Assembly: GCF_964355755.1 (NCBI RefSeq)
Contig: NC_092679.1
Coordinates: 20,567,432-20,631,431 of the forward strand
DNA from: Antedon mediterranea
Taxonomy: Eukaryota > Animalia > Echinodermata
DNA: 64,000 nt
Direction of reading: 5' to 3'
In this document: positions 61,701 through 62,513 of the stretch, one piece after another
Numbering within the stretch: position 1 is the stretch's first letter
Layout of the letters: the number at the start of each line of letters is the position of its first letter
The notes under the pieces: generated by a model
Told to the model about the DNA's origin: nothing
What the model saw: the letters and a program-made list of their open reading frames with translations, nothing else
Database searches by the model: none
Translations under genes and position numbers: made by a program

Positions 61701-62513
61701 ACCTAATTAAAAGTACCATTATTCTAATCTATTCTATTCTAACATTAATTCATATGCTTTGAAAAGTTTCACAAATTTTTAAATTGGTATCATTGGCAAA
61801 AAAATGAATTTATACATACCTTTGACAAACACCACATCTTCCAGAACTACTTTTAAAACTGGGTGGAGTGATATCAGTGCATTATCAGTGGAAGCAAACT
61901 TTACAAAACTTGAAGATGAGTTCTCCAACCATAAAAGTAGTCCGTGATTTGATTCAGCATTTTCTAACCAATACTCAAGAATCTCTTTGATTTCTACTTC
62001 GAAAACAAACGGCTCAGAATTTACACGTATATACTTTTTCGCAATCGCAGGTGTCGCATCTCCACCTGTAGTATCTAGATAGCTGATAGACCAAAGTTCA
62101 CCATTTCGACCTCTTGTTTTTGAGGTCACAACTTCTTCAAACCATGAGCGTACAATCCGTGATGCAGATACCGTATTATTTAGGCTTCCTGACGTATAGG
62201 TCAGCCTGAGTTTGGCACTGATTAGAGTGCTTTTATTGAGGTTAGTTGACCCCGAGTCCCACTCACTAGTGCTCTTAAAAGCGTCAATGTCAAACTTCAT
62301 TAATATGCAACTTTGGGAGCTTGACGTGGTCCTACCGAGTTCAAGATTTTCCTTGCGATAATTGATACTCCTATCGTCCTCAATGAATGTATCAATAACA
62401 GGATTAAAATCGTACAGTCTTTGCAAAACATTCTGCGAAACTACGACCGAAATTACGCACGCAATTATAACGCAAATTTGGCAAGTCCTGAAGACTAAGC
62501 TTATTTTAAACAT
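15650..62513 (-). CDS. ALK: ALK/LTK-family receptor tyrosine kinase, 27 coding exons, ~1760 aa: SP-DNRLRE-like-LDLa-MAM-LDLa-MAM-TNFL/GlyR-reduced EGF-TM-TK-tail
   Basis: All 27 exons join GT-AG in phase (5283 nt including stop). ALK-diagnostic features: [22 protein letters not shown], poly-Gly region, MAM-LDLa-MAM, kinase [71 protein letters not shown]. Confidence 0.92.
16968..17101. mobile_element. MITE family B (PIF/Harbinger-like, ~120-165 bp). Other copies: 19035-19152, 24115-24272, ~25880-26003, 32935-33088, 51081-51365 (x2), 54346-54488, 54624-54767, ~55790-55936, 56180-56343, 59491-59640, 61183-61309
   Basis: TIR AGCTCTGTCTACACTATCAAAC, TWA flanks, shared core GTGATGTGCCCATATATGGACATGATGATGTCATATCACTACCATATTTGG. 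Confidence 0.85.
17286..17376 (-). CDS. ALK: ALK exon 26
   Basis: [17 protein letters not shown]...IGYCLQ. Confidence 0.93.
17759..17893 (-). CDS. ALK: ALK exon 25
   Basis: [29 protein letters not shown]...PPNKCP. Confidence 0.95.
18006..18107 (-). CDS. ALK: ALK exon 24: activation loop
   Basis: [33 protein letters not shown]. Confidence 0.95.
18226..18710. mobile_element. MITE family F (CAGTAGAACC termini, Tc1/mariner-like) with internal 78-81-bp tandem expansion; many other fragments across the window
   Basis: Starts CAGTAGAACCTCTATTAAGGGGACACC; unit GTCCYCTTAATAGGNATGTCCCCTGAACAGGAGTT... repeated 4-5 times; ends GAGTTCTGCTA. Confidence 0.65.
18719..18909 (-). CDS. ALK: ALK exon 23: catalytic loop / DFG
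   Basis: [13 protein letters not shown]...[13 protein letters not shown]. Confidence 0.95.
19540..19734 (-). CDS. ALK: ALK exon 22: kinase alphaC to hinge
   Basis: [30 protein letters not shown]...[17 protein letters not shown]. Confidence 0.93.
20301..20385 (-). CDS. ALK: ALK exon 21: kinase Gly loop / AVK
   Basis: [13 protein letters not shown]...IAVK. Confidence 0.93.
20665..20935 (-). mobile_element. tRNA-derived SINE with Deu/Nin-type central domain
   Basis: A box TGGCCGTGCGG, B box GGTTCGAGGC; core TCGGATAAGGACTATAAACCGTAGGTCC...TAAAGAACC...GTAGGGGGTTACCCCGGTGT resembles the AmnSINE1/DeuSINE conserved domain (from recall). Confidence 0.8.
21062..21239 (-). CDS. ALK: ALK exon 20: juxtamembrane with NPxY
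   Basis: [10 protein letters not shown]...[15 protein letters not shown]. Confidence 0.9.
21821..21928 (-). CDS. ALK: ALK exon 19: transmembrane helix
   Basis: [22 protein letters not shown], followed by FYRRQ across the next junction. Confidence 0.9.
22251..22343 (-). CDS. ALK: ALK exon 18: GlyR end plus two-Cys EGF remnant
   Basis: [27 protein letters not shown]; phase 1-1. Confidence 0.8.
22532..22627 (-). CDS. ALK: ALK exon 17
   Basis: [22 protein letters not shown]; phase 1-1. Confidence 0.85.
22690..23032. repeat. Long inverted repeat (~80-bp arms), family F related
   Basis: TAGAACCTTTAAAGGGCCACC...GGCTGGCCGTTGCTCTAAA (22690-22771) vs TTTAGAGCAATGGCCAGCC...GGTGCCCCCTTTAAAGGTTCTA (22949-23032). 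Confidence 0.8.
23214..23396 (-). CDS. ALK: ALK exon 16: glycine-rich
   Basis: SGGGWKDNT...[14 protein letters not shown]...[20 protein letters not shown]. Confidence 0.9.
23483..23665. mobile_element. Hairpin element with ~50-bp arms and CTAACC-rich core; related fragment at ~61520-61610
   Basis: TTCCAAAGTATCATATGAATATTTGGTAATAC vs GTATTACCAAATATTCCTATGATACTTTGGAA. Confidence 0.7.
23863..24025 (-). CDS. ALK: ALK exon 15: glycine-rich
   Basis: [12 protein letters not shown]. Confidence 0.88.
24393..24515 (-). CDS. ALK: ALK exon 14: glycine-rich
   Basis: [16 protein letters not shown]. Confidence 0.88.
25568..25715 (-). CDS. ALK: ALK exon 13
   Basis: [11 protein letters not shown]...[21 protein letters not shown]. 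Confidence 0.9.
26017..26109 (-). CDS. ALK: ALK exon 12
   Basis: HSNVSVQVV...[13 protein letters not shown]. Confidence 0.9.
27772..27907 (-). CDS. ALK: ALK exon 11: TNF-like domain start
   Basis: [23 protein letters not shown]. Confidence 0.9.
28249..28448 (-). CDS. ALK: ALK exon 10: MAM2 end plus Ser/Thr-rich linker
   Basis: [28 protein letters not shown], then a TTTT-rich stretch. Confidence 0.9.
29010..29315 (+). mobile_element. Deu/Nin-domain tRNA SINE copy
   Basis: TGGCCGAGCGGTTAAGACAGTGG head; same body as 20665-20935. Confidence 0.8.
29333..29499 (-). CDS. ALK: ALK exon 9: MAM2
   Basis: [19 protein letters not shown]...[10 protein letters not shown]. Confidence 0.9.
30882..31015 (-). 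CDS. ALK: ALK exon 8: MAM2
   Basis: GYYIYTEVS...[12 protein letters not shown]...CQ. Confidence 0.9.
31468..31626 (-). CDS. ALK: ALK exon 7: MAM2 start
   Basis: [14 protein letters not shown]...[25 protein letters not shown]. Confidence 0.9.
31770..32357. mobile_element. Kolobok-type non-autonomous DNA transposon
   Basis: TTAA on both sides; imperfect TIR AGCTCAGGTACAGGCA / TGCCCGCACCTGCCCT; termini AG..CT. Confidence 0.6.
33130..33264 (-). CDS. ALK: ALK exon 6: LDLa repeat 2
   Basis: [37 protein letters not shown]. Confidence 0.9.
34868..35195 (+). mobile_element. Deu/Nin-domain tRNA SINE copy with A-rich tail
   Basis: Same head and body; ends AAATAAAATAAAAAAA. Confidence 0.8.
35527..35657 (-). 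CDS. ALK: ALK exon 5: MAM1 end
   Basis: [21 protein letters not shown]...[13 protein letters not shown]; phase 2-1. Confidence 0.88.
38162..38369 (-). CDS. ALK: ALK exon 4: MAM1 middle
   Basis: FYIYVNG...[14 protein letters not shown]...LSVVIV...VWTK; phase 1-2. Confidence 0.85.
39156..41228. mobile_element. Mutator (MULE)/foldback-type non-autonomous element with long TIRs built from GGACAACTACCCCC subrepeats
   Basis: Perfect 9-bp TSD GTTCTGTAC (39147-39155 and 41229-41237); C-rich left arm 39156-39420 is inverted to the G-rich right arm ~40960-41228. Confidence 0.85.
39484..39861. mobile_element. Mutator-type MITE nested in the element above; internal ~22-bp GGTCTCCCTTTTCGTATATT repeats
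   Basis: Perfect 9-bp TSD GTTTTTAAC (39475-39483 and 39862-39870); perfect 36-bp TIR GGGTGTTTCGAAACTAGAGACCCGAGACCAGAGACC. Confidence 0.9.
41474..41569 (-). CDS. ALK: ALK exon 3: MAM1 start
   Basis: [24 protein letters not shown]; phase 1-1. Confidence 0.85.
41657..42300 (+). repeat. Tandem array (~140-155-bp units, 4-5 copies) of a small MITE
   Basis: Units start TGGCACTT(T)AA(A)GCTATGTTCACACTG at ~41657, 41794, 41937, 42093; a solo TIR-bounded relative lies at ~25431-25518. Confidence 0.7.
44600..45190 (+). mobile_element. Diverged copy of the 56782-57407 element
   Basis: Colinear blocks GGCCCGCTATAAATCCCAA, CAACGTCAGGCT, CCAGCTAGGCCTACAAAACTAAGCCTA. Confidence 0.75.
46570..46995 (+). 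repeat. Degenerate ~17-21-bp tandem array (CAGAGGTGTCCCCTTAA) derived from the family F terminus
   Basis: Visible reiteration, including a higher-order duplication (~46770-46870 vs ~46875-46975). Confidence 0.8.
46998..47250 (+). mobile_element. 5'-truncated Deu/Nin-domain SINE inserted in a family F element
   Basis: Begins GTCTTCTCGGATAAGGACTATAAACCGTAGGTCC and ends in an (AAAAT)n tail; family F sequence resumes at 47251. Confidence 0.75.
47348..47458 (-). CDS. ALK: ALK exon 2: LDLa repeat 1
   Basis: [36 protein letters not shown]; phase 1-1. Confidence 0.9.
48802..49268 (+). repeat. 17-bp minisatellite (CCCTCTCTAACCCCTTT), ~27 copies
   Basis: Directly visible, homogeneous tandem array. 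Confidence 0.97.
52055..52602. mobile_element. Kolobok-type non-autonomous DNA transposon (related fragments ~4430-4560, 36478-36753, 43157-43420, 44030-44153)
   Basis: TTAA TSD (52051-52054 and 52603-52606); perfect TIR AGATGTATTGTCCCTT / AAGGGACAATACATCT. Confidence 0.8.
56180..56343. mobile_element. MITE family B, near-consensus copy
   Basis: CACACTATCAAACTTTATGTGAC ... AAACTAGTTTGATAGTGTGGACAGAGCT. Confidence 0.85.
56782..57407. mobile_element. Kolobok-type non-autonomous DNA transposon
   Basis: TTAA flanks; TIR AGCCCCATTCCCT / AGGGAAGGGGTCT; second copy at 44600-45190. Confidence 0.75.
60218..60465 (+). mobile_element. tRNA-derived SINE
   Basis: A box TGGCTTGGTGG, B box GGTTCAAGTCC, poly-A tail at 60452-60465. 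Confidence 0.7.
61820..62513 (-). CDS. ALK: ALK exon 1: signal peptide plus DNRLRE/CBM96-like domain
   Basis: Hydrophobic N-terminus ([15 protein letters not shown]), then motifs PVIDTFI..NY..LELG..ILMKFD..ISAKLRL..SW.E..VT..W..NHGLLL..FAS..HPVLKV. Phase-1 donor G|gtatgt at 61820 matches the phase-1 acceptor at 47458. Confidence 0.75.

Follow-up and report, generated by a model that had tools for sequence, protein, structure and literature searches.

The receptor ALK can drive cancer and is targeted by drugs. According to the accessible part of a 2023 review (PMC10605310), what its N-terminal segment does and how it behaves biophysically have yet to be worked out; in vertebrates this segment is dispensable for stimulation by ALKAL, and heparin helps only at low ligand. 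Heparin binding of vertebrate ALK needs the N-terminal region, according to the available portion of another paper (PMC6274813). Here we describe the ALK gene of the crinoid Antedon mediterranea on the minus strand of a 64,000-nucleotide stretch of contig NC_092679.1 (positions 20,567,432 to 20,631,431 of assembly GCF_964355755.1; hereafter the window). Its exon at 62513-61820 is almost certainly a real part of ALK, and it encodes a domain predicted to have a DNRLRE-type fold.

The closest solved folds to the predicted model of this domain are two bacterial modules, 8WAB and 7VBO, which bind chondroitin sulfate and alginate, respectively. The model has the same beta-sandwich, and the initial annotation of the window was right in calling the domain DNRLRE-like. 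The chondroitinase module 8WAB, which we take to be CBM100, is 12-14% identical to the ALK domain, and where it has an Arg in register with CBM96 R36, the crinoid has Ser. CBM96 (TM6-N4 of alginate lyase Dp0100, PDB 7VBO; PMC9971899) has a basic groove and a calcium ligand, Asp82, that are not kept in the ALK domain. The Pfam CBM96 model is not matched by the crinoid domain, which, unlike CBM96, rides on an animal receptor kinase. The predicted fold also fits the arm domain of TGF-beta prodomains (pro-TGF-beta2, BMP9/10, activin A, myostatin), more weakly than the bacterial modules, and no growth-factor domain follows it in ALK. The family had been described as bacterial and archaeal. This no longer holds: it is not only prokaryotic, because an ESM Atlas cluster named CBM96, with 141 members, is 98% eukaryotic and mostly from Cnidaria. 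The cluster has a feature score of 0.94 to the sea urchin copy of the domain and a representative of about 226 aa, and no kinase family is listed for it.

The ORF (open reading frame), the ordered motifs and the phase-1 donor at 61819 reported earlier are present in the sequence. The assignment to DNRLRE is supported by the NCBIfam model DNRLRE_dom (NF033679), whose score of 55.3 bits clears the cutoff of 34 (E 8.1e-15) and covers model positions 2-163 of 164 and residues 41-222. The other two profiles that had been suggested did not bear out. Pfam CBM96 (PF24517) gave no row for the crinoid domain at E up to 10, and TGFb_propeptide (PF00688) stayed sub-threshold at 12.1 bits (cutoff 25.8), as did Disaggr_repeat at 14 bits. 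On the urchin copy CBM96 reached 16.2 bits, below its cutoff of 26. Pfam called no family for the N-terminal part of the full-length protein either, and for these reasons the domain goes unlabelled. A phmmer search of the domain against PDB found no match, and sub-threshold matches to IS200 transposases were discarded. A homodimer prediction, run without an alignment, scored 0.00, which is evidence neither way.

The exon runs from its ATG to a phase-1 GT donor at 61819, that is, 231 codons plus one base. The features of the gene in the window are as follows.

62514..62923, minus strand: 5' untranslated part of the first coding exon (presumed-RNA contig; acceptor AG at 62925-62924)
62436..62513, minus strand: start codon and likely signal peptide, aa 1-26 (hydrophobic N-terminus; helix 2-21 in the predicted model)
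61827..62429, minus strand: DNRLRE, CBM96-like or TGF-beta-prodomain-like predicted beta-sandwich, aa ~29-229
47459..61819, minus strand: phase-1 intron of 14.4 kb, GT..AG (splice sites; junction contig; no rival signal-peptide exon)
47348..47458, minus strand: extra LDLa exon, 111 nt, phase 1-1 (in RefSeq isoform X1, skipped in X2)
28247..41569, minus strand: MAM1, LDLa and MAM2 exons (exon map of protein P0002 on the window; Pfam)
21822..27905, minus strand: ALK/LTK glycine-rich domain and transmembrane exons (exon map; Pfam)
15650..21237, minus strand: juxtamembrane, tyrosine kinase and C-terminal tail exons (exon map; Pfam)

The window encodes RefSeq proteins XP_071963299 (isoform X1) and XP_071963300 (isoform X2, without the extra LDLa exon), both of which begin with exon 62513-61820. 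The X2 protein aligned to the window in 26 stretches from 62513 to 15653. In P0002, Pfam recognised MAM, glycine-rich and tyrosine kinase domains as well as an LDLa that, at 19.8 bits, fell short of its cutoff; because these domains are present the X2 protein is ALK. The full ALK/LTK arrangement of MAM-LDLa-MAM, glycine-rich domain, transmembrane segment and tyrosine kinase could be placed on the window exon by exon. The second LDLa repeat, ahead of MAM1 at 47348-47458, has the same place after the domain in the ALK of Anneissia, Glandiceps and Branchiostoma. Residues 1-26 are likely a signal peptide, judged by hydrophobicity and the modelled helix.

Splicing of the exon into ALK was followed in run X1, presumed (a guess) to be RNA, and in the DNA-like run X3. 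In a 169-nt contig of run X1, 30 letters equal to 61819-61848 are followed by 30 printed letters equal to 47428-47457, the start of the LDLa exon; the exon side is thus one letter short of the 31-letter bridge rule. This contig links two canonical splice sites, the donor and an acceptor 14.4 kb distant, whereas run X3 continues straight into the intron. The join to the LDLa exon at 47458 proposed in the initial annotation is therefore seen in presumed RNA. Most of the intron next to the donor is uncovered in run X1, a gap that alone proves nothing. The first junction was the only one observed in the reads: the exon skip of isoform X2 was not seen, and no single read molecule linked exon 62513-61820 to the kinase exons. 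In 47459-61819, 12 of the 72 ATG-started ORFs of at least 18 aa were hydrophobic and none of the 12 had a phase-1 donor, in line with the earlier statement that no rival signal-peptide exon lies there. Another X1 contig spans 61819-62924 and has 188 further letters past the acceptor, which consists of a pyrimidine tract and AG; ORFs upstream are short only. Because the match ends at 62924 beside this acceptor with 188 letters more, we infer a non-coding exon upstream, so that exon 62513-61820 is probably the first coding exon but not the first exon of the transcript. Six of the 13 differences in the exon alter a residue. At window position 62309 the reference has Cys69 and relatives have Arg. 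A crinoid loss of this conserved Arg was considered and rejected, since the Arg allele is present in both X1 and X3. The cysteine pair retained in most relatives is missing from crinoid domains.

It is very improbable that the exon mainly forms a separate gene, coding for a small secreted protein and lying upstream of ALK, or that it came from bacteria by insertion or contamination, and for the crinoid this explanation is largely refuted. In its favour, Strongylocentrotus purpuratus LOC100890748 is annotated as a stand-alone protein of 261 aa, and urchin ALK models are without the domain. The junction contig, however, ties the exon to the LDLa exon, and full-length fused ALK models exist in four genera of three phyla. 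The DNA contigs continue from the exon into its flanking regions, and the GC content is 0.39 in the exon vs. 0.43 in the other exons. The short homologues stop a few residues past the last strand, mostly with G-E, G-K or R-K; at the protein level these ends fit read-through of the phase-1 donor. As for the urchin ALK models, they begin within MAM1 or later, and P0168, P0169, P0171 and P0294-P0296 have neither the N-terminal domain nor a signal peptide. The stand-alone protein (P0155, XP_003728712) probably represents the first coding exon that the sea urchin ALK models lack. Its UniRef name is TGF-beta propeptide domain-containing.

The fusion had been thought special to this lineage, but a second crinoid, a hemichordate and amphioxus share it. 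Searching 1.84 billion representatives, we obtained 153 matches to the domain, the best being the ALK of Anneissia (crinoid, 59%) and of Glandiceps (hemichordate, 36%). Also among the best were an urchin cluster including LOC100890748 and proteins of 238-262 aa that stop just past the last strand. The remaining matches were mostly multi-domain proteins, and those checked were of CBM96 or disaggregatase types. A search with the glycine-rich domain returned 116 proteins, counted by names and domains as 100 animal ALK/LTK and 16 others. With a profile built from our alignment A1, 4 of the 100 proved to carry the domain; three of these were already contained in the profile, and the fourth, amphioxus P0170, lay outside it (E 5e-30). 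The domain was not found in the 53 vertebrate, 38 arthropod or arthropod-like, and one mollusc entries; protostomes beyond arthropods are thinly represented. Three urchin models and one of B. belcheri among the 100 are N-terminally incomplete. This survey places the recognisable fusion in echinoderms, hemichordates and cephalochordates, and the domain likely dates to the deuterostome ancestor. An alignment search for longer proteins returned three rows and missed the known positives P0004, P0009 and P0170, so it is uninformative on absence.

In the Branchiostoma cluster of P0170, 8 of the 11 other members have the domain, and three B. floridae models begin inside MAM1. P0170 has a Sushi domain ahead of the membrane. 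The Branchiostoma records contradict the apparent loss of ALK reported in the accessible text of a preprint (10.1101/795468), and amphioxus has a full ALK. Taken with the urchin models, this points to truncation of several ALK models in sea urchin and amphioxus. In a quick, unrooted tree of 86 of the 126 domains (the 40 under 150 aa were dropped), the ALK-type rows formed one clade (12 rows, Shimodaira-Hasegawa-like approximate likelihood ratio test 95) adjoining P0093 and P0120/P0100/P0133, of which P0120 resembles the eukaryotic CBM96-like proteins. Because it is unrooted and the neighbouring records are without names, the tree can show neither gene transfer nor a donor. P0136, P0098, P0052 and P0036 are diverged members of the ALK-type clade and might carry the fusion beyond deuterostomes.

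The initial annotation had further proposed that the domain senses uronic or sulfated glycans. We consider it unlikely that it is a working anionic-glycan-binding module coupling host glycosaminoglycans or algal or microbial polysaccharides to ALK activation. In the accessible text of PMC9971899, alginate binding by 7VBO requires K10, K22, K25, K27, K31, R36 and Y159, and R36E abolishes it. In our alignment of 7VBO with nine ALK-type domains, K22 is replaced by D/E in 8, K25 by E in 6, K27 by G in 8, and R36 by S/T in all nine; the crinoid residues are E55, E58, G60 and S68. The Y159 position (crinoid F203) is aromatic in 2 of the 9. The position of calcium ligand Asp82 is R/V/Q/K in all nine, the register of Asp142 being uncertain. 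By sequence alignment, which is not a superposition, neither the basic groove nor the calcium site of CBM96 was recovered. Thus, glycan sensing is unsupported at residue level: the fold permits glycan binding, but the aligned CBM96 binding site is not conserved. The invertebrate domains are mostly acidic, with net charges of -2 to -16 (crinoid -5; amphioxus +3), whereas the vertebrate regions are +8 to +19, and the fold also occurs in BamH of the Bacteroidota BAM complex and in TGF-beta prodomains. Several points weigh on the other side, against our reading. The two best structural matches are to binders of chondroitin sulfate and alginate, and it is the N-terminal region through which vertebrate ALK binds heparin (PMC6274813, available portion). 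Basic residues R32, R69, R119, R122, R134 and K205 are conserved, R69 standing one position along from the R36 register. Net acidity is also no bar to binding, since 7VBO itself is acidic (about 17 basic vs. 31 acidic residues by hand count). Sugar binding by the invertebrate domain, as judged from these alignments, is doubtful.

The domain had been viewed as standing in place of the vertebrate heparin-binding region. We think it quite probable that the two are homologous, and the invertebrate domain is likely the recognisable ancestral form of the vertebrate tip rather than a replacement for it. Three weak lines agree on this: a colinear profile alignment of the vertebrate region with amphioxus, clan enrichment for this region in the fold search, and concordant language-model neighbours in the ESM Atlas. 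No single test among them is significant. The two also share their position and, in predicted models, the order of strands and helices, and paired cysteines and a helix-plus-tryptophan motif are in register. These likenesses argue against the alternative that vertebrates lost the DNRLRE exon and evolved an unrelated segment at the same place, which we regard as rather improbable. What speaks for that alternative, and against homology, is that the vertebrate region has no significant sequence or fold match; Foldseek with the vertebrate model gave nothing under E 0.001. No PDB chain matches the vertebrate region by sequence. The region also lies beyond detection by hidden Markov models, is net basic, apparently lacks the first two strands, and is followed by a spacer where the invertebrate domain is followed by an LDLa repeat. 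Its basic run ahead of the first strand has no counterpart in the crinoid. Exon 1 of human ALK presumably closes in phase 1 at about residue 223, directly behind the last strand predicted there. It is a tentative idea, a little short of even in our estimate, that the vertebrate region, including the human one, is a diverged DNRLRE/CBM96/TGF-beta-prodomain member from one exon of the deuterostome ancestor, with its heparin motif on the strand of CBM96 Arg36.

Taken as a whole, we lean towards a DNRLRE domain that is spliced into ALK, is ancestral to deuterostomes, gave rise to the vertebrate heparin-binding region and acts as an accessory tether rather than a glycan sensor. A one-exon phase-1 module would have been added ahead of LDLa-MAM-LDLa-MAM. 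At the membrane-distal tip it may bind an extracellular partner (matrix, proteoglycan or protein ligand), and this binding may alter receptor clustering and sensitivity, tuning ALK and not triggering it, while activating ligands would be bound by the glycine-rich region, as they are in vertebrates. The whole sandwich would have survived in invertebrates, its face acidic at the place of the basic CBM96 groove; in vertebrates the first strands would have disappeared and a basic patch able to bind heparin would have arisen. An accessory rather than an activating role is in itself probable, because the vertebrate segment is dispensable for stimulation and needed for heparin binding, and because LTK and arthropod ALK are without the domain.

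Elsewhere in the window, two tandem MFS_1-like transporter paralogues lie downstream of ALK at 2230-2967 and 9738-10583 (minus strand). Upstream of the exon (~63040-63300) lies an interspersed repeat of high copy number, with a depth of tens to hundreds of thousands; it is tRNA-like by eye and perhaps a short interspersed element. Tandem arrays at 48801-49268 (17-nt unit, 27.5 copies) and 4990-5510 (apparent 18-nt unit) yield long spurious ORFs.

In the literature we found no description of a DNRLRE domain in ALK, though subscription papers, supplements, AlphaFold DB and InterPro, which lay outside this scope, may hold the fold. No animal protein was the subject among the DNRLRE papers listed as matches, and none was found pairing ALK with heparin-binding, AlphaFold or prodomain themes. 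The words 'N-terminal' and 'heparin' are absent from the accessible text of the ALK evolution preprint (10.1101/795468). The domain is thus a real and, as it appears, so far undescribed part of a known receptor. It extends the ancestral deuterostome architecture of ALK to DNRLRE-LDLa-MAM-LDLa-MAM-glycine-rich domain. The invertebrate domain is compact and models well, and may serve as a template, with its boundaries, a predicted disulfide and a candidate binding face; for a portion of this oncogenic receptor whose structure is unsolved, it supplies a hypothesis. If the vertebrate region is indeed a diverged member of this family, the receptor kinase ALK would have as its cap a polysaccharide-binding fold also found in bacteria, and the specificity of this fold would have been retuned between invertebrates and vertebrates.
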